A DNA stretch of 19,679 nt from Phycisphaerales bacterium (GTDB lineage Bacteria > Planctomycetota > Phycisphaerae > UBA1845 > Fen-1342), in NCBI GenBank assembly GCA_030628805.1, contig DAOVQG010000044.1:1-19679 (forward strand). Reading direction: 5' to 3'. The notes beneath the pieces are model-generated. The model was not told where the DNA came from, did no database searches, and was given only the letters and a program-made list of their open reading frames with translations. Positions 1,780 through 12,450 of this stretch are shown one piece after another (within the stretch, counting starts at the first letter, position 1; each line of letters begins with the position of its first letter). Both the position numbers and the translations under genes were made by a program.

Positions 1780-2238
1780 TCATTCTTCTCCATGCCGTTG
1801 CTTCGTAATCCGTGCCTGGTCCATGAACTTTCCGCGTGCCGTGGCCATGAGCTGACCGTTTTGTACGACCTCAGCTTTGAGCACGTGCAAGGGAGGAGAG
1901 CAGCGTTCCACCCAGGCCCGCACGGTGACGGCCACGCCCGTGCGCACCGGATGCCGAAAGCGCACCGTCAGTTCCGCCGTCACGGCCGGGATGCCGTGAG
2001 CAAACATGCAATTGGTCATCGCGCCGTCCAGGAGGGAGGCAACCACACCACCGTGCAGCATACCTGCATAACCTTCAAAGGCTGCGTCGCAATCGAAGCG
2101 CGCCTGCACGCGGCCGTCGTCGGACGCCGCAAACTTCAGTCGCATGCTCCGGTCATTTGAGGGGCTACAGACCACGCAGTTTGAATGTACTTGGGCGCGC
2201 ACCTGCTGCAACCCGTCTTGGGCGCACTCAATGGTCAC
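1780..2238 (-). CDS. Hotdog-fold acyl-CoA thioesterase (PaaI/4HBT-like).
   Basis: 152 aa with the PaaI-type core HGGVVASLLDGAM about 60 residues from the start, as in PaaI. The GTG start at 2238 overlaps the end of the upstream Mrp gene by 11 nt. An alternative ATG at 2145 (MRLKF...) has GGAG just upstream. The stop abuts the next gene's ATG. Confidence 0.7.
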   Translation of the reverse strand: MTIECAQDGLQQVRAQVHSNCVVCSPSNDRSMRLKFAASDDGRVQARFDCDAAFEGYAGMLHGGVVASLLDGAMTNCMFAHGIPAVTAELTVRFRHPVRTGVAVTVRAWVERCSPPLHVLKAEVVQNGQLMATARGKFMDQARITKQRHGEE

Positions 2239-3451
2239 AGATGTTCTCTCCGGCCTGTAACGCTCCGTTCAGGTATGCGGTTGCCAACTGCTCGGGCGTC
2301 TCGGCCGGTGCGCCCACGACGACAGTGATGCCGTTTTGCGCGAACAGTTGCTGTGCCCGCTGGCCCATGCCGCCGGTAATGATCACGTTGGCGCCAAGCT
2401 CGTGCAGCCAGCGCGGCAGGGCTCCCGGCTCGTGGGATGGTGGCTTGTGCATGGTCTTGCCGAGGATCGCCTTGTCATCCTCGTTGACCTCGTACAGTGC
2501 GAACTCCTCGCAATGTCCAAAGTGCATGCTCACACGTCCTGCCTGTACAGGGATTGCAATCTTCATACGACGATCCTCCTTGCCTTGATTCTCTGTTGCG
2601 ACACTGGCGTGTGCTGGTGTTTGTTGTCCCAGGAGCAAGCCCACGACGTCGGCGAACGCCTGGGCGCCGAGACTGTTCGTACGGTTGTCAATGAACGGGA
2701 TTCCCGCATCGCCTGATGTAACGATATCCGGATCGATCGGGATCGATCCCAGGAATGGCACGCTCATTTCATCAGCCAGGGCCTTGCCGCCACCTTTCTT
2801 GAACAAATCGATTTGCTGCCCACAGTTTGGGCAAACAAAGCCGCTCATATTCTCCACGATTCCCGCAACCGGCAACGACAGACTGTTGCAGAAGGACACG
2901 CAGCGGCGCACGTCCGCGACAGCCAGGTCTTGCGGCGTAGTTACGATCACGGCCTCCGCCGGCGAACCGACGAGCTGAGCGACCGACAGCGGTTCGTCCC
3001 CCGTTCCCGGCGGTGAATCGACGACCAAGACATCCAGGTTGCCCCAAGCGACGTTTGTCAGGAATTGGCGTATGAGGTGAAACTTGCGCGGGCCGCGCCA
3101 GATCACGGGCTCGTTACCACTGGGCAACAGGAACCCGATCGACATGACCGCCAGTTTGTCGTTCATGTGGACCGGCGACATGTCCTCTCCGGAAACGCCG
3201 ATCTGCTTACCCTCCAGCCCCAGTAGTTTCGGAATGCTCGGTCCGTGGACGTCGACGTCCAGGAGGCCGACGGCCTTGCCGGCTAGTGCCAGGGATACCG
3301 CCAGGTTGGCAGCCACGGTGCTCTTCCCGACGCCGCCTTTGCCCGACAGGACGAGCAGCTTTCGTCGGATGGTCTTCATCCGGGCTTGAAGCATCTGCTC
3401 GTCACGCTGCCGCTGGGCCTCGTCAATTGGTTGTGCCTGTTGCTGTGACAT
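2228..3451 (-). CDS. Mrp/NBP35/ApbC-family P-loop ATPase fused to a C-terminal NifX/NifB-C-term-like (Nitro_FeMo-Co) domain.
   Basis: It contains the deviant Walker A LSGKGGVGKST and the Mrp-signature CPNCG (CxxC). The C-terminal roughly 110 aa (MKIAIPVQAGRVSMHFGHCEEFALYEV...VIITGGMGQRAQQLF...GITVV) match the NifX-like domain family. I chose the ATG at 3451 (MSQQQ...) because AGGAG lies 5 nt upstream. The ORF-track start at 3523 would overlap the upstream gene by 100 nt. Confidence 0.85.
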   Translation of the reverse strand: MSQQQAQPIDEAQRQRDEQMLQARMKTIRRKLLVLSGKGGVGKSTVAANLAVSLALAGKAVGLLDVDVHGPSIPKLLGLEGKQIGVSGEDMSPVHMNDKLAVMSIGFLLPSGNEPVIWRGPRKFHLIRQFLTNVAWGNLDVLVVDSPPGTGDEPLSVAQLVGSPAEAVIVTTPQDLAVADVRRCVSFCNSLSLPVAGIVENMSGFVCPNCGQQIDLFKKGGGKALADEMSVPFLGSIPIDPDIVTSGDAGIPFIDNRTNSLGAQAFADVVGLLLGQQTPAHASVATENQGKEDRRMKIAIPVQAGRVSMHFGHCEEFALYEVNEDDKAILGKTMHKPPSHEPGALPRWLHELGANVIITGGMGQRAQQLFAQNGITVVVGAPAETPEQLATAYLNGALQAGENICDH

Positions 3452-4346
3452 TTGGACTCCTGAGCGTCTCCAGGACGTTTGCCCAGAGTTGTCGAACATC
3501 GGCCGTGACACCGTCCGTTGCATACTCGGTGATGGACTGCATCCTGATCTGAGCCTCCGTGATGGCCCGATCGTAGCGAACTCTCCCCGCCACCTTAAGA
3601 CCGCGGCGGCGCGCCAAGGCTTCGATGTTTAGCGTGAGATTCTCGTTTATATCCCATTTGTTGATGCAAATCAGCGTTTCGACGCGGAAATGCCTGGTCA
3701 AATCTGATACACGTTCCAGATCATGCCGGCCGCTTAATGTCGGCTCCGTAACTACCAAGGCCAAATCAGCCCCTGTTATCGAGGCGATCACCGGACAGCC
3801 GATGCCTGGTGAGCCATCAATGAGAACCAGATCACGCGCGCGGCTTTTGGCGGTCTCCCGCGCCCGCTCGCGAACCAGGCTGACCAGCTTGCCGGAATTC
3901 TCTTCCGCGATACCTAACTTGGCATGCACCATCGGTCCGGCGCGCGTCTCGGATACGAACCACTCCCCGTTGATCGCGGGAGCAAACTCGATGGCCTCCT
4001 CGGGGCAGAACCAAGCACAGACGCCGCAACCCTCGCAGGCGATCGGATCGATGCGATACGCCTTTTCGCGCTGCCCTTCATCGGCTTCGCGGGAAGAAAC
4101 CGCATCAAACCGGCACACTTCCGCGCATTTCCCACAGGCCGTGCAGCGTTCGGGCATAATCCGGGCCTGCGAGCCGCCGGAAAACGTCTCGCGTTTGACA
4201 ATCGTCGGGTCCAGGACGAGATGGAGATCGGCCGCGTCGACGTCGCAATCCGCCAGAACGGCGTTTTCGGCCAGCGTGGCGAACGCGGCCACGATCGACG
4301 TCTTTCCTGTCCCGCCCTTGCCACTGATGATGACCAGTTCTTTCAT
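3423..4346 (-). CDS. MinD/CooC-superfamily P-loop ATPase with an inserted 2x[4Fe-4S] ferredoxin domain (COG1149-like), copy 1.
   Basis: MKELVIISGKGGTGKTS Walker A is followed by CTACGKCAEVC and CEGCGVCAWFCP, two CxxCxxCxxxC motifs. The ATPase body then resumes (VLIDGSPGIGCPV...). The ATG at 4346..4344 overlaps the TGA of the upstream methyltransferase as ATGA, which points to translational coupling. Confidence 0.85.
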   Translation of the reverse strand: MKELVIISGKGGTGKTSIVAAFATLAENAVLADCDVDAADLHLVLDPTIVKRETFSGGSQARIMPERCTACGKCAEVCRFDAVSSREADEGQREKAYRIDPIACEGCGVCAWFCPEEAIEFAPAINGEWFVSETRAGPMVHAKLGIAEENSGKLVSLVRERARETAKSRARDLVLIDGSPGIGCPVIASITGADLALVVTEPTLSGRHDLERVSDLTRHFRVETLICINKWDINENLTLNIEALARRRGLKVAGRVRYDRAITEAQIRMQSITEYATDGVTADVRQLWANVLETLRSPNVTATGTTN

Positions 4347-4918
4347 GAAGCGGTTCCCGTCTTTCGAAGCCTTTCCGGGCGGAAACCTCTGGCCCAAATG
4401 AGCCGGCGTCGCTCAATCAATCGCACCGAGGTTTCCTGATACCCAGCCTTATCGAGCATCCCGGCCAACTCCTCCGGGCTGTAGTAATCCTCACCCCACA
4501 GACGTTGCGCCAGCGAATCCCGTGGGAATTCCACAATCAGGATCTCCCCGCCGGGGCGCAAGACACGCTTGGCTTCCCGCAGGATTGTCCTGGCGTGTTT
4601 CATCTCGTGCAGGGCCCACAGCACTACGACCGCGTCCACGGATTCGTTCGCTGCGAAGTCAAGATGAGCTGCGTCTTTTCGAACGTAGCGAATCCGCGCG
4701 TTCCTGGATGAGCGAGGCCGTTTTGGAAAGTCCGCCGAGGAGATGTCAACCCCGGTGACGTGCTGGCGATACACTTGGGCCAGGTATTTCACCAACCCGC
4801 ACGCGCCACAGCCGAGATCGAGGACGCGACCAGCCAGACGCAATTCGCGCCCGATCCGCTCATACAGTCGCGGCTTGATCCTGTCGTAGAAGTTCATCTT
4901 CAGCATTTTGCCGGACAC
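4343..4918 (-). CDS. Class I SAM-dependent methyltransferase (Methyltransf_11/25-like).
   Basis: Motif I is VLDLGCGACG. There is an acidic post-I residue (VDIS) and a motif-II-like VDAVVVLWALHE. RPGGEILIVE is also present. The GTG at 4918 has GGAG 8 nt upstream. Alternative ATGs lie at 4906 and 4897. Confidence 0.8.
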   Translation of the reverse strand: MSGKMLKMNFYDRIKPRLYERIGRELRLAGRVLDLGCGACGLVKYLAQVYRQHVTGVDISSADFPKRPRSSRNARIRYVRKDAAHLDFAANESVDAVVVLWALHEMKHARTILREAKRVLRPGGEILIVEFPRDSLAQRLWGEDYYSPEELAGMLDKAGYQETSVRLIERRRLIWARGFRPERLRKTGTAS

Positions 4919-4961: not shown

Positions 4962-5912
4962 TCATTGAGGCGCGCTATCGTCGTCTGTTCGTTTCGCGAA
5001 TCGGTAGAACGCTCCCGCGCCGCTACCCTCGCAGACCAGCACGTGCTCCCTGAGCAACTCGTCCAAGTACTTCACGACCTCATTGGAATGCAGTCCGAGC
5101 CCGGTGGCCAGATCGTTCAGTGTACACGGGCGCCGCATCAAGAGGTTGAGAATATCCTCCCGGCGGGCCTGATAATACTCGCCATGATGTACGGTTTGGT
5201 ATTCAGCGATCACCTCGGCGCGGTCTCCGAAGAGCCGAGCGGCCTGTGTGAGTTCGTCAAGCGGCACCGGCCGGGCAAATGCCTCGCAGGGGGGGCGTGT
5301 TACCGTGTTCAACTGCACGCGGTCGGGCATAATCCGATCTAGCCAGCGAGCAATCCTCTCCTGCTGGATGCCGGCTGCGTTTAGACCTTTCAGGAGAAAC
5401 ACCTCGAGCCAGAGCGGTTTGGAGAACCGCTGCCGAAACTCCTCGATTCCAGTTACCATGCGGTCGAAGAGAATCGCCGCGTGCGGCCGGTTTACCCACT
5501 GGAACGTGGCCTCGTCGCCGGCGTCCAGCGAGGGGATGACGAGATCCGCTTCCAGGAGCGCTTCCTGCACGTCACGGTCCCACAGCAGCGACCCGTTCGT
5601 CAGCACGGCGACGGGCCGGTCGGTTCTTTCCTTGATCCCCGCGATCAGTGGCGCCAAACGGGAATACAAGGTGGGTTCGCCCGATCCGGACAACGTGACA
5701 TAGTCGGCTTCCGGTCCGGCCGCCAGCCGGCACTCGAGTTCCTCCAGGACTTCGTCCAACGGGACATATTCCTTCCGTTCAATGGTCTTGTTCGTCGTTC
5801 GGCCGAGCTGGCAATAGATGCAGTCGTAGGAGCACGTCTTGAACGGTACCAGGTCGATGCCCAGTGAACGCCCCAGCCGACGGGACGGCACGGGTCCGAA
5901 TACGTGGCTCAT
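4962..5912 (-). CDS. Radical SAM protein (COG0731-like Fe-S oxidoreductase) with a C-terminal winged-helix-like tail.
   Basis: The N-terminus FGPVPSRRLGRSLGIDL is followed by the canonical CxxxCxxC (CSYDCIYC). A GSGEPTL glycine-rich SAM motif is present. AGGTGA lies 4 nt upstream of the ATG at 5912. Confidence 0.85.
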   Translation of the reverse strand: MSHVFGPVPSRRLGRSLGIDLVPFKTCSYDCIYCQLGRTTNKTIERKEYVPLDEVLEELECRLAAGPEADYVTLSGSGEPTLYSRLAPLIAGIKERTDRPVAVLTNGSLLWDRDVQEALLEADLVIPSLDAGDEATFQWVNRPHAAILFDRMVTGIEEFRQRFSKPLWLEVFLLKGLNAAGIQQERIARWLDRIMPDRVQLNTVTRPPCEAFARPVPLDELTQAARLFGDRAEVIAEYQTVHHGEYYQARREDILNLLMRRPCTLNDLATGLGLHSNEVVKYLDELLREHVLVCEGSGAGAFYRFAKRTDDDSAPQ

Positions 5913-5980: not shown

Positions 5981-6295
5981 CTAATCCGCGCCATCCTGAT
6001 CGTGCGGGAGTCCACGGTGCGGAGCTTTCTGTCGCCGGCTTCCCAGGCGCAGAGCTGACAGGAAGAACGCGGAAATACCGCCGAACAGCCCGGCGAAAGC
6101 AGGCCCACCCGCGCACCCGGGCTGACCGCAGAACGGACACACGGAGAACGCGGTCAAGAACGCGAACAAGCCGGCCCACCACCCCAAAAAGCGGGCCAGC
6201 GGTGCCAGGAAGCGGCGCTTGGCCGATCGACACAATTTCCGTGTGCCAGGGCCGGCAGATTGTTCGGTGGTGCCGGACTCGTTCGCGCGACTCAT
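5981..6295 (-). CDS. Small (104 aa) putative membrane protein with a CPFCGQPGC motif.
   Basis: There are two hydrophobic segments (FLGWWAGLFAFLTAFSV and FAGLFGGISAFFLSAL) and a Cys triad. Its ATG at 6295 overlaps the TGA of the upstream MinD-Fd gene as ATGA. This coupling is my main reason to believe an ORF with no other support. Confidence 0.45.
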   Translation of the reverse strand: MSRANESGTTEQSAGPGTRKLCRSAKRRFLAPLARFLGWWAGLFAFLTAFSVCPFCGQPGCAGGPAFAGLFGGISAFFLSALRLGSRRQKAPHRGLPHDQDGAD

Positions 6296-7158
6296 GGTTC
6301 TCCTGTCCGATGCGGCAGCAACGACTCCTCCAGCCGGGCCTGAAGCTGTTCGAACGCCGCTTGAGTCTCCGGCACGGCGTCGATCACGAGCTCCCCGCGC
6401 GAATACGCCTCCGCGATGCGTCGGTCGTCTGGAATCTCAAGCAACACCGGAATCTGCTCGGCGGCACAGTAATCCACAACGCGGCCGTCGCCGACATCGG
6501 CGCGATTGATGACCACGCCGAACGGAAGCTCCAGTTGCCGCACGGTCTCCACCGCCAGTATCAGGTCATTGAGCCCAAACGGCGTCGGCTCGGTAACGAG
6601 CACGACGAAGTCACTATTAAGCACGGCCGTAATGACCGGACAGGACGTACCCGGCGGGGCATCGATGACGAGCCAGTCAACGTCCGGGGCCGCGGCCCTG
6701 ACCGCCTTGATCACCGGCGGACTTTGGGCCTCGCCCACGTTCAGCAGACCGTGCACAAACTGGACCGGGCCGGCCTGCCCGCGCTCCACGACGCCAATCT
6801 CTCGCGGCACCTCGATAATCGCCTGGCAGGGGCAGGCCAAGGCGCAGCCGCCGCAGCCGTGGCACAGCTCCGGGTATACGAGGACCTTCTGTCCCAGACA
6901 CACGATCGCGCTGTATTGGCAAATCGCGCCGCACTGACCGCACTGCTCACACGCCTGTTCGATGACTCGCGGCACCGGTATCGCCACCGGCGTACGCTCA
7001 GCGAGGGCGGGTTTGAGGAACAGGTGTCCGTTGGGTTCTTCCACGTCGCAATCCAGGTACGCCGCGGAGCGTCCCTGGCGCGACACCGCCACGGCCAGAT
7101 TCGTGGCCAGTGTTGTTTTGCCGGTTCCGCCCTTGCCGCTGGCTATGGCTATTCTCAC
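6292..7158 (-). CDS. MinD/CooC-superfamily P-loop ATPase with an inserted 2x[4Fe-4S] ferredoxin domain, copy 2. It is a paralogue of 3423..4346.
   Basis: MRIAIASGKGGTGKTT Walker A with a GTG start at 7158. The motifs CEQCGQCGAIC and CHGCGGCALACP are present, and it has the same architecture as copy 1 (VIDAPPGTSCPV). Confidence 0.85.
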   Translation of the reverse strand: MRIAIASGKGGTGKTTLATNLAVAVSRQGRSAAYLDCDVEEPNGHLFLKPALAERTPVAIPVPRVIEQACEQCGQCGAICQYSAIVCLGQKVLVYPELCHGCGGCALACPCQAIIEVPREIGVVERGQAGPVQFVHGLLNVGEAQSPPVIKAVRAAAPDVDWLVIDAPPGTSCPVITAVLNSDFVVLVTEPTPFGLNDLILAVETVRQLELPFGVVINRADVGDGRVVDYCAAEQIPVLLEIPDDRRIAEAYSRGELVIDAVPETQAAFEQLQARLEESLLPHRTGEP

Positions 7159-7203: not shown

Positions 7204-7380
7204 CTATTCGGGAACACTGATTGCCTCGGTTGGGCATTCGGCCACGCACGCTGCACAGTCGATACAGTTCTCTTCATCAATGACTGCCTTTTCGTTCTCC
7301 AGCGCAATAACCTCTACTGGGCACACGTCAACGCATGCGCCGCATCCCGTACACTTTTCAACATCTACCGTCGCCGCCAT
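7204..7380 (-). CDS. Small 2x[4Fe-4S] ferredoxin (58 aa). It is not in the supplied ORF track.
   Basis: Reverse-strand translation gives MAATVDVEKCTGCGACVDVCPVEVIALENEKAVIDEENCIDCAACVAECPTEAISVPE*. The two CxxCxxCxxxCP motifs are perfect. AGGAAGGA lies 9 nt upstream of the ATG at 7380. It sits 4 nt after the stop of the upstream gene. Confidence 0.7.
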   Translation of the reverse strand: MAATVDVEKCTGCGACVDVCPVEVIALENEKAVIDEENCIDCAACVAECPTEAISVPE

Positions 7381-7384
7381 GCGG

Positions 7385-8080
7385 TTATCCTTCCTGTTCC
7401 AACTGCTGAATCCGCTGCTGCAATTGGCGCATTTGTTCGGTCATGGCATCCGCCTGCCGCTTGAGCATCGCCAACTCATCCTCCTTGCTGAGGTCTTGAC
7501 CCGGCGGCAACGTCGAAGCCGGATCGTCTCCTGGCGGTCCAGCACCCATGCCCATCCCGCGGCCCATGCCACCGCCGCGCCCCATGCCCCGTCCCATGCC
7601 GCCGCCTCGGCCCATACCACCACCCCTTCCCATCCCGCGGCCCATGCCCATGCCCCCACCGGACATCCGCGGTTGCTGGAATGGTGTCGGCTGGCCCTGA
7701 AGAGCGCTGGGCGCGCCAGCCATGCCGGCATGGCCGGGGACGTTTGGCTGTTCTGTCGGCTTGAGCTGACCGGCCTTGAACAGCTCGGCCACGTCCCGAA
7801 CCGTCCCAGAGCAGCCGATAATCACGCCGATGCCGGCTGCCGACAGGGTCTGATGGGCGTTCGGGCCGCAGTTGCCGGTCAGAACGTACTGGACGCCCTT
7901 GTCGGCCATGATCCGGGCCGACTGAATCCCGGCTCCCTGACCGAGCTCCTGGCTGGCGTTGTCAATCGCCTCGAAGCTCATGTCGTCGGTCTCGACGATC
8001 AGGAAATAGGGGCAGCGGCCGAAGCGCGGTTCAACACCCGACTCCAGCCGCGGTTCCGTAGCGGTAATTGCGATTTTCAT
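7385..8080 (-). CDS. NifX/NifB-C-term-like domain protein fused to a Gly-Met-Arg-rich repeat and a C-terminal coiled coil (DUF5320-like C-terminal module).
   Basis: The NifX-like domain is MKIAITATEPRLESGVEPRFGRCPYFLIVE...YVLTGNCGPNA...GIGVI. Residues 141-179 are GGGMGMGRGMGRGGGMGRGGGMGRGMGRGGGMGRGMGMG. The protein ends in the heptad-like LSKEDELAMLKRQADAMTEQMRQLQQRIQQLEQEG. AAAGGA lies about 13 nt upstream of the ATG at 8080. The ORF-track start at 8131 would run into the upstream gene. Confidence 0.8.
   Translation of the reverse strand: MKIAITATEPRLESGVEPRFGRCPYFLIVETDDMSFEAIDNASQELGQGAGIQSARIMADKGVQYVLTGNCGPNAHQTLSAAGIGVIIGCSGTVRDVAELFKAGQLKPTEQPNVPGHAGMAGAPSALQGQPTPFQQPRMSGGGMGMGRGMGRGGGMGRGGGMGRGMGRGGGMGRGMGMGAGPPGDDPASTLPPGQDLSKEDELAMLKRQADAMTEQMRQLQQRIQQLEQEG
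7544..7660 (-). repeat. In-frame tandem 15-nt (GMGRG) codon repeat.
   Basis: The nucleotide periodicity is visible as ccatgcc/ccgcgg units across 7540-7680. It encodes GMGRG/GGGMGRG units. Confidence 0.8.
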
Positions 8081-8127
8081 GTGTGTTGTTGTCCTTTCGT
8101 TTAGCAGTCCGCCGCAACAGTCATGAT

Positions 8128-9039
8128 TCACAGTCCCGCGGAACCTGCGTCCTCGATTTCATTCGTGTCCCCGGCGGCAACCCGGGCGTGCCTCGATCTC
8201 CGCAGAATCAGACTGCCGACGCGGCAGCCCAGATCTCTGGCGATCACGGGGCATTTTGCCTTGAGCACAAAGAAGATGTCCTTCTCCACCTCGTTGAGCG
8301 TCTCATAGTTGCCCTGACCTTTCGCGACGATCATGTCTGCCGCGTCGAAACGGTGCCGGAACTCGCTGCTGCAATCGTCGAGAATCGTGCCCGGCGCATC
8401 CGAACCGTTGTCGATGACTTCGACCAGCCCGGGAATCCCCGCGGCCTGCGTGTCGGCGATCGTCACATCATTGATCACCGGAAAGCCCCGCACGGCCACG
8501 GTCACCTTCTCGACCGGCATCTGTTCGAGCAACAGCCGGTCGAACACGATCTCCCCGGCGTTGTCGGCCAAATAGAGAATTCTTCGCGCCCCGGACAGCG
8601 TCTCGGCAAAGGCACGCATGTCGCCGTCCAGCGGTGCCGACGAAGCATCTTCAATCGCCTCGTGCAAGGCAGGTTCGTCAAAGTGGGCCTTGACGCCCAT
8701 GTCAATGACATTGCCGGCGATCGCCAGCCGCAGAGCTGTCTCCAACGGACGGGATGAGGCGTGCACCCGAGCGCGCAGCTTCGGATAGAGCTCCAGCGCC
8801 ACCCGAGTGGAGTGATCCTTCAGCTCACGATACGGATCACTTTGACCCGTCAGGCGGCGAATCAGACGATGGATGCGTTGGCCCATCGCCGGCGGTGATT
8901 GCCACAGGTCCATTTCACTAGCGGCTCGCAGGATCTCTCGCAGCAGCCGCTCGTGAACCTCCTCGTCGTCGGTCACCAAGCGCACGGAATCAAGCGCCTG
9001 TCGGACGAAGCAGGGCACGCACTCAAGGTAGGTTTGCAT
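8128..9039 (-). CDS. DUF89 / ARMT1-like family protein (damage-control phosphatase-type fold).
   Basis: The N-terminus MQTYLECVPCFVRQALD and the internal KGQGNYE and GFPVINDVT regions match my memory of DUF89 signatures. The ATG is at 9039. Confidence 0.7.
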   Translation of the reverse strand: MQTYLECVPCFVRQALDSVRLVTDDEEVHERLLREILRAASEMDLWQSPPAMGQRIHRLIRRLTGQSDPYRELKDHSTRVALELYPKLRARVHASSRPLETALRLAIAGNVIDMGVKAHFDEPALHEAIEDASSAPLDGDMRAFAETLSGARRILYLADNAGEIVFDRLLLEQMPVEKVTVAVRGFPVINDVTIADTQAAGIPGLVEVIDNGSDAPGTILDDCSSEFRHRFDAADMIVAKGQGNYETLNEVEKDIFFVLKAKCPVIARDLGCRVGSLILRRSRHARVAAGDTNEIEDAGSAGL

Positions 9040-9505
9040 TGCTCGTGGCCGATCCTCTTAACCTGATGGCCCCGCGGGGGCACGCTTCCACACAGGCCCC
9101 GCAACCGCGGCAGGCCTCCGCGTTCACCGTGACGGCCGTCTCGCCCAGGGTGATCGCCTCGGTCGGACAGACCGTCTGGCAAACCCCACACAGGGTGCAC
9201 GCTGCTTCGTCGACACTCGCGACCAGCGGTGCATGAGCGGCGCGCCGTGCGGCCTCGCGCAACCTTACTGCGTCCAGGTGCTCCATGGCAAGGGTCTGGT
9301 CCTTCAAAGGGCTGAGCATCCGCGGTTTGGCCGGCGCGGCGCCTCTCGGAAGGTTCGGGGGCTGCGCTGTCCGATCACTCCTGCCGCCTTGGAGCGCGCG
9401 CCGCATGCGTCCGCCCCGGCCACGCCCGCGTCCCATTCCGCGGCCATCGCGACGACCACGACCACCAGCACCCGGCGGCCCCGTTCCGTCACCGCGCGGC
9501 ATCAT
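9023..9505 (-). CDS. Fusion of the DUF5320-like N-terminal motif and an RG-rich region with a C-terminal 2x[4Fe-4S] ferredoxin domain.
   Basis: The N-terminus is M(M)PRGDGTGPPGAGGRGRRDGRGMGRGRGRGG. The C-terminus has CTLCGVCQTVCP and CRGCGACVEACP. The ATG at 9505 overlaps the TGA of the upstream DUF5320 gene as TGATG. Its 3' end overlaps the DUF89 start by 17 nt. Confidence 0.75.
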   Translation of the reverse strand: MMPRGDGTGPPGAGGRGRRDGRGMGRGRGRGGRMRRALQGGRSDRTAQPPNLPRGAAPAKPRMLSPLKDQTLAMEHLDAVRLREAARRAAHAPLVASVDEAACTLCGVCQTVCPTEAITLGETAVTVNAEACRGCGACVEACPRGAIRLRGSATSNANLP

Positions 9506-9864
9506 CAACCCTCTTTTTCCTTGGCCGCCTCGAGTTCCGCGATCCGTTTCCTGATCTCACCGAGCGTGCCTTCAAAATGCTCCGCCTGAGCTCTCAGTGC
9601 TTGAACTTCCTGCTCGGCCATCACTGGCGGATAGTACGCCGCGGCCCCGTAAGCGGGCTGTGCGCCGACAACTCCCATCGGATAGTACCCATGGCGCCAT
9701 CCGCGGCCCCAGCCGCGCCCGCGGCCCCAGCCGCGGCCCATGCCCCAACCGCGCCCCGGCATCTGGTTCGTGTAACCGGGCATTGAAAACCCGGCGCAGT
9801 AACCTGCCGCTCGTCCCGTCATTGAGCCCAGTCCGGCAGGGCCCGTTCCATCTCCACCTGGCAT
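9505..9864 (-). CDS. DUF5320-family small protein with a conserved N-motif, an RGW repeat and a C-terminal coiled coil.
   Basis: The N-terminus is MPGGDGTGPAGLGSMTGRAAGYCAGF. The repeat is GRGWGMGRGWGRGRGWGRGW. The C-terminus is EQEVQALRAQAEHFEGTLGEIRKRIAELEAAKEKEG. AAGGAG lies 8 nt upstream of the ATG at 9864. Confidence 0.75.
   Translation of the reverse strand: MPGGDGTGPAGLGSMTGRAAGYCAGFSMPGYTNQMPGRGWGMGRGWGRGRGWGRGWRHGYYPMGVVGAQPAYGAAAYYPPVMAEQEVQALRAQAEHFEGTLGEIRKRIAELEAAKEKEG
9688..9756 (-). repeat. In-frame tandem codon repeat encoding GRGWG units.
   Basis: cgcggccccagccgcg-type 12-15 nt units are visible at 9690-9760. Confidence 0.7.
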
Positions 9865-9904: not shown

Positions 9905-10090
9905 TTAGCTGCCCCTTCCACGTCCTGCATCGCTGCCTTGCCTCTGGCCACGACCGCTGCCGCGACCCCGTCTGGGCCGTTGGCCTTGTCCGCCGCCACC
10001 GCTCCCTTTTTTTCCGCCCTTGCAAGGCCCCAGACCTCTGCCGGTCCCGGAACCTTGTCCTTGCGGCCCAGTTCCATCGCCTGCCGGCAT
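9905..10090 (-). CDS. Short (61 aa) DUF5320-like protein with the N-motif followed by a Gly/Arg-rich tail.
   Basis: MPAGDGTGPQGQGSGTGRGLGPCKGG...RGRGSGRGQRQGS. A perfect AAGGAGGTGA Shine-Dalgarno lies 8 nt upstream of the ATG at 10090. The ORF-track N-terminus at 10186 runs through the RBS and the stop of the upstream gene, so I consider it spurious. Confidence 0.55.
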   Translation of the reverse strand: MPAGDGTGPQGQGSGTGRGLGPCKGGKKGSGGGGQGQRPRRGRGSGRGQRQGSDAGRGRGS

Positions 10091-10095
10091 TGTGA

Positions 10096-10509
10096 TCACC
10101 TCCTTTCGTGCTTGTCTGAAGACGAAAAGCGTTGCAGGTCGAGCGCCTGCATCCAATGTCCTTCTACAGTCGGCTCTCTGATACATTCAAGCTCCCCGCG
10201 CTTGAACTGCTCCACGGCCTGCCCCACGTGCCCAGTGGCCCCGACGTAGACCTCGACATCGCCGGCTTTCAGTCTGGCCAAGGCTTTGGGGCCGACCTTC
10301 CCGGTAATCACGGCATGCACGCCCAGTTTGAGGATGGCCTCGGCTGCCTTGATTCCTGCGTACCCGAGAATATTGAGATTCCCCTTGTTGTCGTGAACCG
10401 TAGACCGATCGGTCTCGGTATCAACCACCACGAAGAACCTGGCCCGCCCGAACCGCGGATCAAGCTCGGCCCCCAGATTCGATCCTCTTGATGTGACCGC
10501 TACCTTCAT
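10096..10509 (-). CDS. NifX/NifB-C-term-like (dinitrogenase FeMo-cofactor-binding fold) domain protein.
   Basis: MKVAVTSRGSNLGAELDPRFGRARFFVVVD...HAVITGKVGPKALARLKAGDVEVY. GGAGG lies 9 nt upstream of the ATG at 10509. That ATG overlaps the upstream TGA as ATGA. The ORF-track start at 10665 is implausible. Confidence 0.8.
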   Translation of the reverse strand: MKVAVTSRGSNLGAELDPRFGRARFFVVVDTETDRSTVHDNKGNLNILGYAGIKAAEAILKLGVHAVITGKVGPKALARLKAGDVEVYVGATGHVGQAVEQFKRGELECIREPTVEGHWMQALDLQRFSSSDKHERR

Positions 10510-10916
10510 GCCATCCCCCTCCAACGGCCCGCTCCTGGCCGGCCGCCGTGACGCCGACCTCCCCGAAACCGTCGGCGCCGACCGCAGCAGCCCGGCATCA
10601 AGAATGCCTCGTCCGGCAATTGCCCCGCGAGGAAGGCCCGTAGAACGTCCTCCACCGGCCCGCAAATTTGCGGTATGAGCCGTATTCCCGCGGAGGTCAA
10701 CATCGCCTCAAGCGGCCACGAGATCGCGCCGCAGATAAGCACGTGCACGCCGAGCGCCGTCACCCGGCTCGCCCTAGCCGCAAGCCGCGTTTCTTCGAGA
10801 TCCACCTCACTCCGGCCGATCTCGGCGTCACGCTCGACGTCTACCACCAGCAAACGCCTGGCGACGTCGAAGACCGGAGAAATCCGGCCGTCCCATGTTG
10901 GAAGCGCTACTCTCAT
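10506..10916 (-). CDS. NifX-like domain protein. It is the first gene of the array after the regulator.
   Basis: MRVALPTWDGRISPVFDVARRLLVVD...VLICGAIS...GIRLIPQICGPVEDV. The start is either the ATG at 10916 or a TTG at 10934. There is a basic Cys-Cys tail (MPGCCGRRRRFRGG). Confidence 0.7.
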   Translation of the reverse strand: MRVALPTWDGRISPVFDVARRLLVVDVERDAEIGRSEVDLEETRLAARASRVTALGVHVLICGAISWPLEAMLTSAGIRLIPQICGPVEDVLRAFLAGQLPDEAFLMPGCCGRRRRFRGGRRHGGRPGAGRWRGMA

Positions 10917-10970
10917 CACTGAGGACTCGTGCAAGACGCGCGCCGCCCCAGACGATCAGCCTCGATTCCT

Positions 10971-11082: not shown

Positions 11083-12450
11083 CTATTCCTTCTTCCGGCT
11101 CCCGTGCCCCGTATCCGGCAGTGCGATCCCCATGGACTTGATCTTGCGGAACAGAGTGCTGGGGTCAATGCCCAGCTCGCGGGCAGCGGCCGTACGGTTG
11201 CCGCCGTGCCGGCGGACTGCATCCGTGATGTGCATGGCCTCAAGGGCTTGCAGCGTGAGAGCGCCCTGGCCTCGCGGAGGCTTGAGGTCGGTGTCGCCAC
11301 GCATTGCTGGCGGCAGATGATGTGGTTCTATCAGGGCGCCTCGGCAAAGCACGAACGCGTGCTCGATGACGTTCTCGAGCTCGCGCACGTTGCCCGGATA
11401 GTCGTGTTCCATCAGCAGCGCCAGCGTCTCTTCCGAGATGCCGGCCACGTCTTTGTCCTGGAGGCGATTGAACTTACTGATGAAACGCTCCACCAGCAGC
11501 GGGATGTCCTCCCGGCGATCGCGCAACTCCGGCAGCTTCAGCCGGATCACGTTGATGCGATAAAACAGATCCTGCCTGAAAACGCCCTTCTTCACCAACC
11601 GGTTCAGGTCCTGGTTGGTGGCGGCGACCACGCGCACATCCACCTTCACCGGCTCGACGGACCCGAGTGGCTCGAACACTCTTTCCTGGAGGACGCGGAG
11701 CAACCGGGCCTGCATGGCGGGCGAGATATCACCGATTTCGTCGAGCAGGATCGTTCCGCCGTCCGCGCTTGCCAATCGTCCCGGCTTGTCGTGCCGGGCG
11801 TCGGTAAACGCGCCGGCCTTGTAGCCGAACAGCTCCGATTCCAACAGGGTGTCCGGCAGCGCGCCGCAATTGACCGCAACGAAACGCTTGTCACGGCGCG
11901 GCGAGAGGCTGTGCAACGCCCGGGCGACCAGCTCCTTGCCGGTACCGCTGGCGCCCTCGATGAGCACGGTTGTGTTGCTCTCGGCGATTTGCGGGAGCAG
12001 GTCGAAAAGCTGCCGCATCGCCGAACTGCGGCCGACGATGTCCGCGAACGTGTATTTCGCCTCCAACTCCTTGCGCAGCTCCTCCACCAGGCTGAGGTCC
12101 CGGAAGGTTTCCACACCACCGATCGTATCGCCAGCGGCGTTCTTCAGGGCTGCCGCCGAGATGCTGATAGGAATGCGCCGGCCATCGGCGTCGAGAATGT
12201 AGATGGCCTTATTCACGATCGACCGCCCGGAGCGGAGCGTCTCCTTCAGGGCACACTCGTTCTCGCAGATGCTCGCCCGGAACACGTCGCAGCACCGCCG
12301 CCCGATGGCTTCCGCACGTGGCACGCCCGTGATTTGCTCGGCCGCCCGGTTGAACGACGTGATCCGCCAATCCTCATCGACGGTGAAAACGCCGTCGGCG
12401 ATGGAGTCGAGGATAGTGTCCGTCACACGCTTCTCGGATGATGCGGTCAT
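11083..12450 (-). CDS. Sigma-54-dependent transcriptional activator (bacterial enhancer-binding protein) with PAS, AAA+ sigma-54-interaction and Fis-type HTH domains. It has no receiver domain.
   Basis: The N-terminal PAS domain has a CC-x7-C-x3-C cluster (RRCCDVFRASICENEC). The central domain has Walker A GASGTGKE, a GAFTDA variant of the GAFTGA loop, and RVVAATN. The C-terminal HTH is AARELGIDPSTLFRKIK. Confidence 0.9.
   Translation of the reverse strand: MTASSEKRVTDTILDSIADGVFTVDEDWRITSFNRAAEQITGVPRAEAIGRRCCDVFRASICENECALKETLRSGRSIVNKAIYILDADGRRIPISISAAALKNAAGDTIGGVETFRDLSLVEELRKELEAKYTFADIVGRSSAMRQLFDLLPQIAESNTTVLIEGASGTGKELVARALHSLSPRRDKRFVAVNCGALPDTLLESELFGYKAGAFTDARHDKPGRLASADGGTILLDEIGDISPAMQARLLRVLQERVFEPLGSVEPVKVDVRVVAATNQDLNRLVKKGVFRQDLFYRINVIRLKLPELRDRREDIPLLVERFISKFNRLQDKDVAGISEETLALLMEHDYPGNVRELENVIEHAFVLCRGALIEPHHLPPAMRGDTDLKPPRGQGALTLQALEAMHITDAVRRHGGNRTAAARELGIDPSTLFRKIKSMGIALPDTGHGSRKKE

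Follow-up and report, generated by a model that had tools for sequence, protein, structure and literature searches.

The closest studied analogue of the NifX-like proteins with Arg-Gly (RG) tails described here is, judged by architecture, IssA. IssA of Pyrococcus furiosus (PF2025) is an iron-sulfur storage protein with a related, uncharacterised 'IssX' clade, and consists of a NifX-like domain and, behind it, an unstructured tail that is cationic, abounds in Gly, Arg, and aromatic residues (Trp), and bears the only Cys of the protein (Vaccaro et al. 2017, PMC5524996). This tail was proposed, but not demonstrated, to bind anionic thioferrate without precise positioning of ligands (PMC5524996). 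Another described system is formed by the orp (orange protein complex) operons of Desulfovibrio vulgaris, which encode Orp3, Orp4, Orp5, Orp8, Orp9/MrpORP, and the regulator OrpR (PMC6345978, PMC8359166). Desulfovibrio ORP proteins form a physical complex (PMC6345978), for which a connection with cell division and with the positioning of the septum has been described (PMC6345978, PMC8359166), and residues C52, C61, and C65 of OrpR hold a [4Fe-4S] redox sensor (PMC8359166). The family DUF5320 (Pfam PF17253), which has no assigned function, is not mentioned in this orp literature (PMC6345978, PMC8359166). The full-text literature yielded only two passing mentions of DUF5320 and no experimental work on any of its members. 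The locus described here offers this large orphan family a testable role in the poorly understood "orange protein" / iron-sulfur storage clusters.

The gene cluster around the DUF5320 genes

The window, i.e., the whole 19,679-nt stretch of Phycisphaerales DNA that was analysed, contains the features collected in Table 1. All three proteins on which the initial annotation was built (the small protein, the NifX-like protein, and the ferredoxin protein) were present on the minus strand, at the coordinates given there.

Table 1. Features of the window discussed in the text, with their supporting matches.
Feature	Position	Strand	Evidence
MrpORP (Orp9-like): Mrp/NBP35 ATPase + NifX-like domain	2228..3523	-	NCBIfam NF041136, ParA, Nitro_FeMo-Co
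Second MinD/ParA-type ATPase, ferredoxin insert (Orp3/Orp4-like)	3423..4346	-	CbiA, Fer4
Methyltransferase gene	4343-4918		window annotation
Radical SAM gene	4962-5912		window annotation
MinD/ParA-type ATPase, ferredoxin insert (Orp3/Orp4-like)	6292..7158	-	CbiA, ParA, Fer4
2x[4Fe-4S] ferredoxin, 58 aa, directly downstream of NifX fusion	7204..7380	-	Fer4 E 1e-17
NifX fusion: NifX/orange-protein-like domain + GMGRG repeat + DUF5320-type coiled coil, 231 aa	7385..8080	-	PF02579, PF17253
Coiled-coil helix of NifX fusion (residues 199-230)	7391..7486	-	AlphaFold2; coil HMM; BLASTP
DNA tandem repeats (periods 18, 30, 36) coding for GMGRG repeat	7545..7660	-	Tandem Repeats Finder
DUF89 / ARMT1-like protein, between both fusion genes	8128..9039	-	PF01937 E 1.9e-70
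Ferredoxin fusion: N-motif + RG stretch + decayed coil + 2x[4Fe-4S] ferredoxin, 159 aa	9023..9502	-	Fer4 E 1.6e-16
Stand-alone DUF5320 protein, 119 aa	9505..9864	-	PF17253 E 6.6e-27, 95 bits, profile 1-99
Coiled-coil helix of stand-alone protein (residues 83-118)	9511..9618	-	AlphaFold2; hhalign to NifX-fusion coil
DNA tandem repeat (periods 18 and 30) coding for GRGWG repeat	9693..9760	-	Tandem Repeats Finder
N-motif P-G-G-D-G-T-G-P, right after start Met	9838..9861	-	six-frame motif scan
Short DUF5320-type ORF without coiled coil, 61 aa	9905..10090	-	PF17253 E 6e-6, profile 1-52
Tail-less NifX/ORP-like protein, 137 aa	10096..10509	-	PF02579 E 1.3e-19
Divergent NifX-like protein with cationic tail	10506..10934	-	PF02579 E 8e-9
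OrpR-like sigma-54 enhancer-binding protein (PAS, AAA+, HTH)	11083..12450	-	Pfam

To judge by its gene content, the window is an expanded orp gene cluster. This assignment is based on the MrpORP, which scored 523 bits against the equivalog model NF041136 (cutoff 450), on two NifX-like domains with ORP 2WFB as their best PDB match (8.5e-20 for the NifX fusion, with MTH1175 next at 2.9e-16, and 9.9e-17 for the tail-less protein), and on the OrpR-like regulator, in which Cys53/54, Cys62, and Cys66 reproduce the spacing of OrpR C52, C61, and C65. In sequence, the NifX domains of the window resemble the orange protein more than they do MTH1175. As in D. vulgaris, the MrpORP equivalog is accompanied by two MinD-type ATPases with ferredoxin inserts, ORP-like NifX domains, and a sigma-54 activator whose PAS domain carries the three Cys, and the cluster is confined to anaerobes. 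In contrast to the two divergent operons of D. vulgaris, the genes are co-directional here (those of the related loci L083 and L085 are divergent), and the window additionally contains four DUF5320-type modules, DUF89, extra ferredoxins, a radical SAM enzyme, and a methyltransferase. The DUF89 gene was found at 24/80 DUF5320 loci, and the 58-aa ferredoxin is joined to the NifX fusion protein in some genomes.

Anatomy and homology of the DUF5320-type modules

The stand-alone protein is a typical full-length member of DUF5320, with 6080 homologues (E<=1e-3). Its three parts follow each other as the initial annotation had proposed: the segment MPGGDGTGP...GYCAG is followed by the repeat GRGWGMGRGWGRGRGWGRGW of GRGW type and by a C-terminal coiled coil ending in ...AELEAAKEKEG. 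The N-motif segment contains the invariant Cys23, and alignment A2 shows no variation at positions M1, P2, G4, D5, G8, and P9 of the motif. G, A, or R occupies position 3, and there is no invariant basic residue among the first nine. The RG segments (54% G, 28% R, 8% W) have a pI of 12. AlphaFold2 predicted residues 1-70 as disordered (pLDDT about 40) and residues 83-118 as a helix (pLDDT 87-96), in which the a/d positions, with the heptad register read from the sequence, are occupied by V, L, A, F, L, I, I, and L. Pfam treats DUF5320 as a single domain, whereas by the present data it comprises three or more separable modules (N-motif, RG repeat, and coiled coil), which combine variously and with differing partners.

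In the NifX fusion, residues 13-102 correspond to Nitro_FeMo-Co (NifX-like, PF02579; E 2e-24) and residues 139-227 to positions 15-99 of the DUF5320 profile (E 1.8e-9); the tail searched alone gave E 1.4e-10 and 42.6 bits (cutoff 27). Both the NifX fusion and the 61-aa ORF passed the PF17253 gathering score. AlphaFold2 predicted a confident NifX domain (1-117), a disordered region (118-196), and a helix (199-230). Across homologues of this fusion, the GMGRG-type repeat ranges from 14 to 64 aa, a variation that arises through the DNA tandem repeats.

The proposal that the NifX fusion ends in the same type of module as the stand-alone protein was borne out by segments free of RG. The C-terminal 50 residues of the NifX fusion scored 25.8 bits against the C-terminal HMM of stand-alone DUF5320, compared to -0.5 +/- 2.3 bits for 300 shuffles (max 9.5; z about 11) and 5.6 for the reversed sequence. 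Profile-profile comparison of the two coil families with hhalign gave a probability of 98.6% and E 5e-16 over 39 gap-free columns, and BLASTP between the two coils gave 31% identity over 29 residues without gaps (E 7e-4). Both coils have the same a/d heptad register. The N-terminus of the ferredoxin fusion scored 4.9 bits, and its shuffles -11.4 +/- 2.8 (max -1.1). Six-frame translation of the window yields the pattern P.GDGTGP at exactly three places, all of them immediately after a start Met; the three copies match position by position over nine residues, and their codons differ at synonymous sites. By these comparisons, the shared segments are more than chance and more than composition.

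The ferredoxin fusion begins with MPRGDGTGPPG, continues with an RG-rich stretch, and carries two CxxCxxCxxxCP motifs at its C-terminus. An alternative start at 9505 overlaps the stop codon of the upstream gene. Its match to Pfam DUF5320 falls short of the threshold (E 0.38, 12.4 bits, profile 1-53), and what ties it to DUF5320 is therefore the N-motif, the RG stretch, and the series of related proteins. The N-motif was found in 51/82 homologues, in 49 of those at residue 2, and among the relatives are proteins that have a full coil and others whose domains stand in reversed order. The middle region of the ferredoxin fusion gave no score against the coil HMM, but in alignment A4 its segment LSPLKDQTLAMEHLDAVRLREAAR lines up in register with the genuine coils of related proteins. 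This alignment shows that the protein descends from a full N-motif-RG-coil-ferredoxin fusion, the coil of which has decayed in this lineage. Thus, of the earlier statement that each half of the small protein is fused to a metallocluster domain, the fusions proved real, but the ferredoxin protein is more than the N-terminal half joined to a ferredoxin.

Two modules of the window had been overlooked, the 61-aa DUF5320 ORF and the cationic tail on the third NifX-like protein. The ORF, also called as a gene in the independent Logan assembly, starts with the N-motif MPAGDGTGPQG..., has a Cys in GLGPCKGG and an RG-rich tail, and scored 29.5 bits against the N-segment HMM; 19 such short ORFs (N-motif plus RG) were found in other genomes. 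The divergent NifX-like protein, with its true start likely at the ATG at 10916 (136 aa), ends in the cationic tail MPGCCGRRRRFRGGRRHGGRPGAGRWRG (conserved tail segment MPGCCGRRRRFRGG), which is kept in 27/37 orthologues from other loci. It has a pI of 10.1, 4 Cys, and 25% Gly in its last 40 residues.

Recurrence of the fusions and of their gene neighborhood

Both Pfam domains (PF17253 and PF02579) were detected in 85/120 closest homologues of the NifX fusion, and the RG tail in 120/120. The architectures found across phyla comprise NifX-RG-coil, NifX-RG-coil-ferredoxin, N-motif-RG-coil-ferredoxin, ferredoxin-RG-coil, N-motif-RG-Cys-ribbon, and NifX-RG without a coil (P0187 and P0211 among close homologues). 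The triple fusion NifX-RG-coil-Fer4 accounts for 9/120 homologues and 6/80 loci, and NifX-RG-coil ORFs, with or without the ferredoxin, were present at 11/80 genome loci. The N-motif started at residue 2 in 155 of 164 occurrences and was absent from all 120 NifX fusions and from the ferredoxin fusions with reversed order.

These data bear on the possibility that the shared segments are low-complexity look-alikes or that the fusions are assembly or gene-calling artefacts. Low-complexity RG repeats do inflate profile scores, and the ferredoxin fusion has both an insignificant Pfam match and a middle region silent against the coil HMM. However, the RG-free coils match in one register, the N-motif stands at three start codons with differing synonymous sites, hundreds of independent assemblies, spread over several phyla, contain such fusions, and the Logan assembly has the same gene structure. 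We therefore rejected this reading as practically untenable.

DUF5320 occurs in at least 439 species from many anaerobe phyla. A NifX-like gene lies less than 500 bp from the stand-alone DUF5320 gene at 52/64 loci, with a median distance to the nearest NifX-like gene of 154 bp. Among 27 full-length DUF5320 loci, each from a different species, a NifX-like gene was present within 10 kb in all 27, usually adjacent, along with MinD-Fer4 (23/27), Mrp (21/27), and ferredoxin (21/27) genes. When loci were picked from the fusion side, the stand-alone gene lay directly upstream of the NifX fusion in three of four. The usual company of DUF5320 and NifX-like genes, i.e., MinD-ferredoxin ATPases, MrpORP, and the OrpR-like regulator, is part of the basis for the orp assignment above. 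The Rosetta-stone argument of the initial annotation thus holds up, and more strongly than was visible at that stage: the recurrent fusions, in several arrangements, and the gene adjacency together give good support to a functional, and probably physical, link of DUF5320 to NifX-like and Fe-S proteins.

The neighborhood also bears on a reading of DUF5320 as a precursor peptide of ribosomal origin, or as another modification substrate, that would be processed by the cluster's radical SAM enzyme and methyltransferase. Arg-Gly repeats are classical substrates of arginine methylation in eukaryotes, the protein is small, its N-terminus conserved and its repeat variable, and both enzyme genes are in the window. 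The enzymes, however, accompany only 12/27 (radical SAM) and 5/27 (methyltransferase) of the full-length loci, and a conserved C-terminal helix and fusions to folded domains misfit a leader-core peptide, which makes this role very improbable.

Rather more credible, but still improbable, is that the RG repeat and coil form a generic condensate or nucleic-acid-binding module (RGG box) without inorganic contact. RG-rich disordered regions serve nucleic-acid binding or condensation in other systems, and the RGG motifs of eukaryotes are nucleic-acid binders and drivers of phase separation; the Arg/Gly-rich sequence here is likewise disordered, variable in length, and placed beside an oligomerising helix. 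Against this, all fusion partners found are metal-cluster domains (NifX-like, 2x[4Fe-4S] ferredoxin, and Cys-rich ribbon), no nucleic-acid-related partner occurred among the architectures surveyed, and the genes are confined to orp-type clusters.

A candidate role beside NifX-like cluster carriers

The assignment of the RG-repeat proteins as tethers, scaffolds, or chaperones can be narrowed to an orp-type cluster with an IssA-like architecture of the cationic tail. Like IssA, the RG-tailed proteins consist of a NifX-like globular domain (IPR003731 / PF02579) and, after it, an unstructured cationic tail rich in Gly and Arg, and what is conserved in such tails is the chemical character and a repeat pattern, not the precise sequence; the comparison with IssA is one of architecture only. 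The IssA tail has a single Cys, and DUF5320 one invariant Cys in its disordered part. The divergent NifX-like protein falls within the working criteria for the IssA clade, which include pI >= 9 and >= 20% Gly in the last 40 residues (PMC5524996), whereas the NifX fusion falls outside them for pI and Gly because of its acidic coiled coil. Two features set the DUF5320 tail apart from that of IssA: a conserved coiled coil forms its end, and it is encoded by a stand-alone gene as well, there with an N-terminal motif of its own.

By this analogy, DUF5320 is best read as an IssA-type tail made detachable and oligomeric. Module homology, recurrent fusions, synteny, the orp assignment, and the IssA parallel lead us to favour, with moderate confidence, the following joint explanation. 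In an orp-type cluster, DUF5320 would be a portable module, composed of a strictly N-terminal motif with one invariant Cys, a disordered and strongly cationic Arg-Gly repeat, and a four-heptad coiled coil, that acts alongside NifX-like cluster carriers and ferredoxins and was repeatedly fused and split in evolution. The RG repeat, in trans or fused, would bind anionic inorganic metal-sulfur species electrostatically, without fixed ligand positions. Candidate ligands are thioferrate-like (FeS2-)n chains and linear thiometallate clusters such as the one held non-covalently by the orange protein. The homologous coils of the stand-alone protein and the NifX fusion, possibly by hetero-oligomerisation, would gather multiple tails and carrier domains into a multivalent assembly, and the ferredoxin fusions would bring electron transfer to that assembly. 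Against this explanation, the ligand of the orange protein is a Mo/Cu cluster and not thioferrate.

Simple electrostatic binding leaves the strictly N-terminal conserved motif unexplained. The obligate N-terminal position of the motif speaks for another role of DUF5320, as adaptor to the cluster's MinD/ParA-type ATPases (Orp3/Orp4-like, MrpORP), in analogy to McdB, ParB, or MinE. The N-terminal peptide would contact or stimulate the ATPase, while the disordered region and coil would hold the cargo, namely the NifX-like and ferredoxin proteins or a particle built by them, and the fusions would join adaptor and cargo. McdB and ParB are known partners of ParA-family ATPases; like them and MinE, which have a peptide for interaction at the N-terminus, DUF5320 is small, has an N-terminal peptide ahead of a charged disordered region and a coiled coil, and is encoded beside ParA/MinD-family ATPases, a likeness of architecture and gene context only, with no sequence similarity. 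The frequency of MinD-Fer4 and Mrp genes and the tie of the ORP complex to cell division also fit. However, the linkage to NifX-like genes is tighter than that to the ATPases, and the first nine residues of the motif lack an invariant basic residue. We consider such an adaptor unlikely, though compatible with the carrier-associated tail favoured above and not exclusive of it.

Also counting against the explanation favoured above, the NifX fusion further differs from IssA in being acidic as a whole (pI 5.8) and in having Met (14%) in place of aromatic residues in its repeat. Such a repeat could serve a different ligand, e.g., a soft metal.

Homology of the DUF5320-type modules

The gene identities in the window were assigned with Pfam and NCBIfam. 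The 119-aa stand-alone protein matched DUF5320 (Pfam PF17253) end to end, with 95 bits against a gathering cutoff of 27 (profile positions 1–99). The NifX-like protein with the long tail (NifX fusion) carries a Nitro_FeMo-Co domain at residues 13–102 and the DUF5320 profile (positions 15–99) at residues 139–227 (E 1.8e-9), and it exceeded the same cutoff both as the whole protein (39.1 bits) and as the tail alone (42.6 bits, positions 15–99). The 159-aa protein with the ferredoxin end (ferredoxin protein) starts with MPRGDGTGPPG and an RG-rich stretch, and its N-terminal part scored below the PF17253 cutoff (12.4 bits, E 0.38). However, alignment A4, which contains its relatives, ties it to 16 of its 82 listed homologues that have a precomputed PF17253 match. 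The 61-aa ORF (MPAGDGTGPQGQGSGTGRGLGPCKGG...) combines the N-motif with an equivalently placed Cys and an RG tail and lacks the C-terminal coiled coil (coil); its match to PF17253 over profile positions 1–52 was marginal. This ORF is a fourth DUF5320-type module, absent from the initial annotation. It lies immediately upstream of the 119-aa gene. The short and long forms appear joined in some genomes, as proteins of 180–192 aa (e.g., P0101) with the second N-motif internal. NCBIfam has no model for DUF5320.

Genes and other features of the window
Feature	Position	Strand	Family or note
Sigma-54 activator with PAS, AAA+ and HTH domains	11083-12450	-	PAS, Sigma54_activat, HTH_8
Divergent NifX-like protein	10506-10934	-	PF02579, E 8e-9
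NifX-like protein	10096-10509	-	PF02579, E 1.3e-19
61-aa ORF	9905-10090	-	PF17253, 27.8 bits (cutoff 27)
119-aa DUF5320 protein	9505-9864	-	PF17253, E 6.6e-27
159-aa protein with 2x[4Fe-4S] ferredoxin end	9023-9502	-	
DUF89/ARMT1-like protein	8128-9039	-	
NifX-like protein with long tail	7385-8080	-	PF02579, E 2e-24
58-aa ferredoxin	7204-7380	-	
MinD-type ATPase with ferredoxin insert	6292-7158	-	CbiA/ParA + Fer4
104-aa ORF	5981-6295	-	no family match
Radical SAM enzyme	4962-5912	-	
Methyltransferase	4343-4918	-	
Second MinD-ferredoxin ATPase	3423-4346	-	CbiA/ParA + Fer4
Mrp/NBP35-NifX fusion	2228-3523	-	ParA + Nitro_FeMo-Co; NF041136
Thioesterase	1780-2238	-	
Pyridine-nucleotide disulfide oxidoreductase	433-1779	-	
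YqiJ-like membrane protein	12728-13591	+	long acidic Asp/His repeat (DADADVDADADLDHDIDLDHDVDVDLEHDLDLEVDHD...)
682-aa SPFH/Band 7 protein	13678-15726	+	very long charged helical region
808-aa extracellular solute-binding protein joined to ABC-transporter permease domain	17083-19509	-	

Because the RG repeats are of low complexity, the non-repeat segments were tested on their own. Two HMMs were built on 104 stand-alone homologues, one from their first 34 residues and one from their last 42, and 300 shuffles served as the control. The last 50 residues of the NifX fusion, which exclude the RG segment, scored 25.8 bits against the C-terminal HMM, compared to -0.5 ± 2.3 (maximum 9.5) for the shuffles and 5.6 for the reversed sequence. 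Against the N-terminal HMM, the first 40 residues scored 4.9 bits for the ferredoxin protein (shuffles -11.4 ± 2.8, maximum -1.1) and 29.5 bits for the 61-aa ORF (shuffle maximum 1.8). The middle region of the ferredoxin protein scored no better than shuffles with the coil HMM. In the profile-profile comparison (hhalign) of the stand-alone family (alignment A2) with the NifX-fusion family (A3), 39 coil columns aligned without gaps (98.6% probability, E 5e-16). The two coils from the window also aligned gap-free, with 31% identity, and their sequences read in the same 3-4-3-4 hydrophobic register, with V-L-A-F-L-I-I-L at the a/d positions of one coil and L-L-A-M-M-L-I-L in the other.

P.GDGTGP was found exactly three times in the six frames of the window, every time straight after the start Met. 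Because the DNA of the three copies differs at synonymous positions, the motif is conserved at the protein level. AlphaFold2 predicted disorder for residues 1–70 and a confident helix for residues 83–118 of the 119-aa protein. For the NifX fusion, it predicted a confident NifX domain (1–117), disorder (118–196) and a helix (199–230).

The similarity between the modules is positional, more than compositional. The alternative weighed in the initial annotation, that the segments resemble each other only as low-complexity sequence, was rejected by the segment HMMs with their shuffle control and by hhalign. That annotation had described the 119-aa protein as N-motif, RG repeat and coil, the NifX fusion as ending in the same type of module, and the ferredoxin protein as starting with the N-motif and an RG-rich stretch. 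All three descriptions are correct; for the NifX fusion, the PF17253 cutoff was passed and the coil is backed by the shuffle control and hhalign.

Recurrence and variants of the fusions

The fusions are genuine and recurrent. Precomputed matches to PF17253 and PF02579 occur together in 85 of the 120 best NifX-fusion homologues. All 120 have an RG-rich tail, and nine have ferredoxin motifs too. Planctomycetota, Phycisphaerae, Lentisphaeria and Deltaproteobacteria are among their source names, and the nearest relatives of the DUF5320 and NifX-fusion proteins come from MAGs labelled Planctomycetes, Planctomycetota or Phycisphaerae. Most ferredoxin-protein homologues start with MPRGDGTGP and RG, and in three (P0305, P0316 and P0320) the order is reversed to ferredoxin-RG-coil.

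When genomes were scanned with the stand-alone alignment, relatives were detected in at least 439 species-level genomes, and one DUF5320 search gave more than 6000 sequence clusters, which makes DUF5320 a large orphan family of anaerobes from many phyla. The best 80 loci span Planctomycetota, Atribacterota, Thermodesulfobacteriota and other 'Deltaproteobacteria', Omnitrophota, Firmicutes (Thermoanaerobacterium, Thermovorax), Anaerolineae, Spirochaetota, Zixibacteria, Verrucomicrobiota, NC10, Actinomycetota, Acidobacteriota, Fibrobacterota, Cloacimonadota and Bacteroidota, all apparently anaerobes. The ORFs in these 80 loci comprised N-motif + RG + coil (57), N-motif + RG (19, some variants with a Cys-rich ribbon end), NifX + RG + coil + two ferredoxin motifs (6), NifX + RG + coil (5), N-motif + RG + ferredoxin (3) and RG + coil + ferredoxin (2). 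The triple fusions correspond to the NifX fusion plus a small ferredoxin, which the window keeps as the next separate gene. In addition, the identical ferredoxin protein is encoded in an independent Logan assembly, which shares the gene structure. This, together with the recurrence among homologues and loci and in several architectures, rejects the reading of the fusions as unique artefacts, a doubt raised in the initial annotation. A generic RGG-type role, in nucleic-acid binding or condensates, is less likely for these repeats because each fusion partner found is a metal-cluster domain.

The ferredoxin protein had initially been taken to share only the N-terminal half of the stand-alone protein. 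The N-motif and RG stretch hold, but the limitation to this half is wrong. In A4, the segment LSPLKDQTLAMEHLDAVRLREAAR is in register with the genuine coils of P0263, P0270, P0291, P0295, P0297-P0299 and P0321, and also with the coil of the stand-alone protein, while the equivalent segment is deleted in P0272 and P0283. As judged from this alignment with relatives, the segment is probably a decayed coil, and the proteins would form a series from N-motif-RG-coil-ferredoxin through the decayed coil to no coil.

The divergent NifX-like protein, encoded by the first NifX-like gene after the regulator, has a cationic C-terminal tail (MPGCCGRRRRFRGGRRHGGRPGAGRWRG) that is kept in 27 of 37 orthologues of other loci; the conserved tail reads 'MPGC(C)GRRRRFRGG', and the initial annotation had not mentioned it. 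The PDB contained no sequence relative of the protein at 10506-10916. Five orthologues (L005 2116-2715, L016 8432-9049, L037 9148-9969, L063 6041-6736 and L079 1831-2454) end in a Cys-rich ribbon (CxCPxCG...HERGVPC...CPKCG) instead of the cationic tail. Two other genomes have this ribbon joined to the DUF5320 N-motif and RG (L018 9190-9435 and L033 12807-13034). These ribbon fusions are a further Rosetta-stone link. A possible counterpart of the ribbon in the ORP operon is Dde_3197, a small Cys-rich [2Fe-2S] protein, the best match of which was reported in one paper as 'dinitrogenase FeMo-cofactor biosynthesis protein'.

The orp-type cluster and its gene neighbourhood

From 12450 to 433, every gene is on the minus strand and the genes are closely packed. 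The Mrp/NBP35-NifX fusion matched the MrpORP equivalog NF041136 with 523 bits (cutoff 450) and is the counterpart of Orp9/MrpORP of the Desulfovibrio orange protein (orp) cluster. The two MinD-ferredoxin ATPases (6292-7158 and 3423-4346) are the counterparts of Orp3 and Orp4, which are MinD-type ATPases with two [4Fe-4S] motifs, and a counterpart of Orp8, a single-domain, orange-protein-like NifX protein, is also present. The best PDB match was the Desulfovibrio gigas ORP (2WFB), both for the domain of the NifX fusion (E 8.5e-20) and for the 10096-10509 protein (E 9.9e-17); MTH1175 ranked second for these two domains. Within the sigma-54 activator's PAS domain, Cys53/54, Cys62 and Cys66 have the spacing C-x8-C-x3-C. 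In Desulfovibrio, C52, C61 and C65 of OrpR bind a redox-sensing [4Fe-4S] cluster (PMC8359166). The Cys spacing is the same, and the domains and this spacing suggest that the activator is OrpR-like. The MrpORP equivalog, the best matches to ORP and the OrpR-spaced Cys residues therefore identify the window as an expanded orp-type cluster. Of note, a scan for sigma-54 promoters gave 11 sites in the window, no excess over the 9.2 expected by chance; one weak GG-N10-GC-like site with two mismatches (10930-10945, minus strand) overlaps the TTG annotated as the start of the gene after the activator.

The Desulfovibrio vulgaris proteins Orp3, Orp4, Orp5, Orp8 and Orp9 associate in a functionally uncharacterised physical complex, tentatively tied to cell division (PMC6345978). 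DUF5320 was not mentioned in the orp papers examined, and a full-text search for 'DUF5320' returned two papers with incidental mentions and no study of the family.

The gene neighbourhood was counted in 27 loci with complete 10 kb on either side. All 27 contained a NifX-like gene. MinD-ferredoxin ATPases occurred in 23, Mrp-type ATPases and small ferredoxins in 21 each, and sigma-54 activators in 14. The median gap between the DUF5320 gene and the nearest NifX-like gene was 154 bp, with ≤500 bp in 52 of 64 loci. The usual order was activator, tailed NifX-like, DUF5320, NifX-like, (NifX fusion), two ATPases and MrpORP. To avoid ascertainment bias, a second start was made from four NifX-fusion proteins, and the stand-alone DUF5320 gene was directly upstream of the fusion gene in three of these loci (L082, L083 and L085; not L084). 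The initial annotation had proposed that the RG-repeat proteins are physical partners of the NifX or Fe-S components. Its observation of the fusions is confirmed, and its interpretation is supported as a functional link by the recurrent fusions and the synteny, and can be made sharper. Gene order and architecture give good support to the prediction that, inside orp-type systems, the DUF5320 modules act jointly with ferredoxins and NifX-like carriers.

Co-occurrence of DUF5320 with radical SAM enzymes and methyltransferases was weak, and on this ground the reading of its proteins as RiPPs or modification substrates was rejected.

In L083 and L085, an OrpR-like gene is located between two divergent gene sets, as in the Desulfovibrio orp cluster. 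The same clusters encode TauE, Zn_ribbon_8, thioredoxin, rhodanese-fused disulfide oxidoreductases and RACo-like proteins as well, a hint of a sulfur or redox theme. In the window, the 104-aa ORF overlaps the MinD-ferredoxin ATPase gene at its stop codon and encodes hydrophobic stretches and a CPFCGQPGC motif. Pfam and NCBIfam gave no match for it, only one of the 80 loci (L002) had a homologue, and it may or may not be a genuine gene. The SPFH/Band 7 gene follows the YqiJ-like gene, and this pair lies beyond the orp cluster, on the opposite strand.

Likeness to the IssA tail and possible roles

IssA (PF2025) of Pyrococcus furiosus, a thioferrate storage protein that forms nanoparticles, has a NifX-like domain and, after it, an unstructured tail of 70 residues. 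Gly, aromatic and cationic residues (mainly Arg) abound in this tail, which holds the only Cys of the protein and is conserved in Trp, Gly, Arg and the repeat pattern (PMC5524996). Its authors proposed that the tail binds anionic thioferrate chains electrostatically, with imprecise ligand positions, and described 'IssX' as an uncharacterised clade in non-thermophiles (PMC5524996). The published PF2025 primer sequence had no match in the genome contigs. The NifX-like domain of IssA (IPR003731/PF02579) is the one found in the three NifX-like proteins at 7385-8080, 10096-10509 and 10506-10934. By the operational criteria for the IssA clade (Vaccaro et al., Supplementary Fig. 7: pI ≥ 9, < 5 Cys and ≥ 20% Gly among the final 40 residues), the 10506-10934 protein qualifies as a candidate member (pI 10.13, 4 Cys, 25% Gly). 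The NifX fusion falls short on two counts (pI 5.76 and 5% Gly over its final 40 residues), because an acidic coil follows its RG segment.

The RG segments themselves have a pI of 12, vary widely in length and are encoded by DNA tandem repeats. Their composition is 54% G, 28% R, 8% W and 3% F in the stand-alone proteins and 61% G, 20% R and 14% M in the NifX fusions. DUF5320 has a single invariant Cys within its disordered part, and close homologues include coil-less NifX-RG proteins (P0187 and P0211), which have the plain IssA architecture. In several ways, these features appear to fit the description of the IssA tail. What would be new is a detachable, oligomerising variant of this tail within orp clusters, probably a moderate novelty and no new kind of system.

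In the favoured mechanism, the RG repeat would bind anionic metal-sulfur species electrostatically in the manner of IssA, the coils, homologous between the stand-alone and fused forms, could gather several tails and carrier domains, and the ferredoxins may deliver or withdraw electrons at this assembly. The electrostatic mechanism leaves the obligate N-terminal place of the N-motif unexplained: the motif starts at residue 2 in 155 of 164 occurrences, and none of the 120 NifX fusions carries it. In adaptors of the McdB or ParB type, an N-terminal peptide binds or stimulates the cognate ParA/MinD ATPase. The main alternative, that DUF5320 is such an adaptor toward the MinD/Mrp-type ATPases, would account for this restriction; its basis consists of the strictly N-terminal motif and the gene neighbourhood, and it is compatible with the electrostatic tail. 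Both could be joined in a bacterial counterpart of the IssA particle, built by DUF5320 and RG-tailed NifX-like proteins. Coil-multimerised cationic disordered tails would enclose an inorganic anionic polymer, either Fe-S (thioferrate-like) or thiometallate, in a protein-mineral condensate, ferredoxins fused to them would charge and discharge it, and the MinD/Mrp-type Orp ATPases would handle or position it, with the N-motif as the handle. We consider this joint reading improbable. If it were true, the ORP complex, with its function unknown since 2011, would be an Fe-S storage and delivery organelle of anaerobes. If the IssA-like reading holds, anaerobic bacteria would widely use cationic disordered tails for Fe-S storage, and such storage would not be a peculiarity of Thermococcales. 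The fusions and the synteny join DUF5320, what the ORP complex does and how the IssA tail acts into concrete experimental questions, and a large orphan family gains a testable role.

In Methanococcus voltae, IssA-clade proteins and adjacent radical SAM enzymes go up on pyrite (PMC9431491). This response is at least consistent with such clusters serving Fe/S handling.
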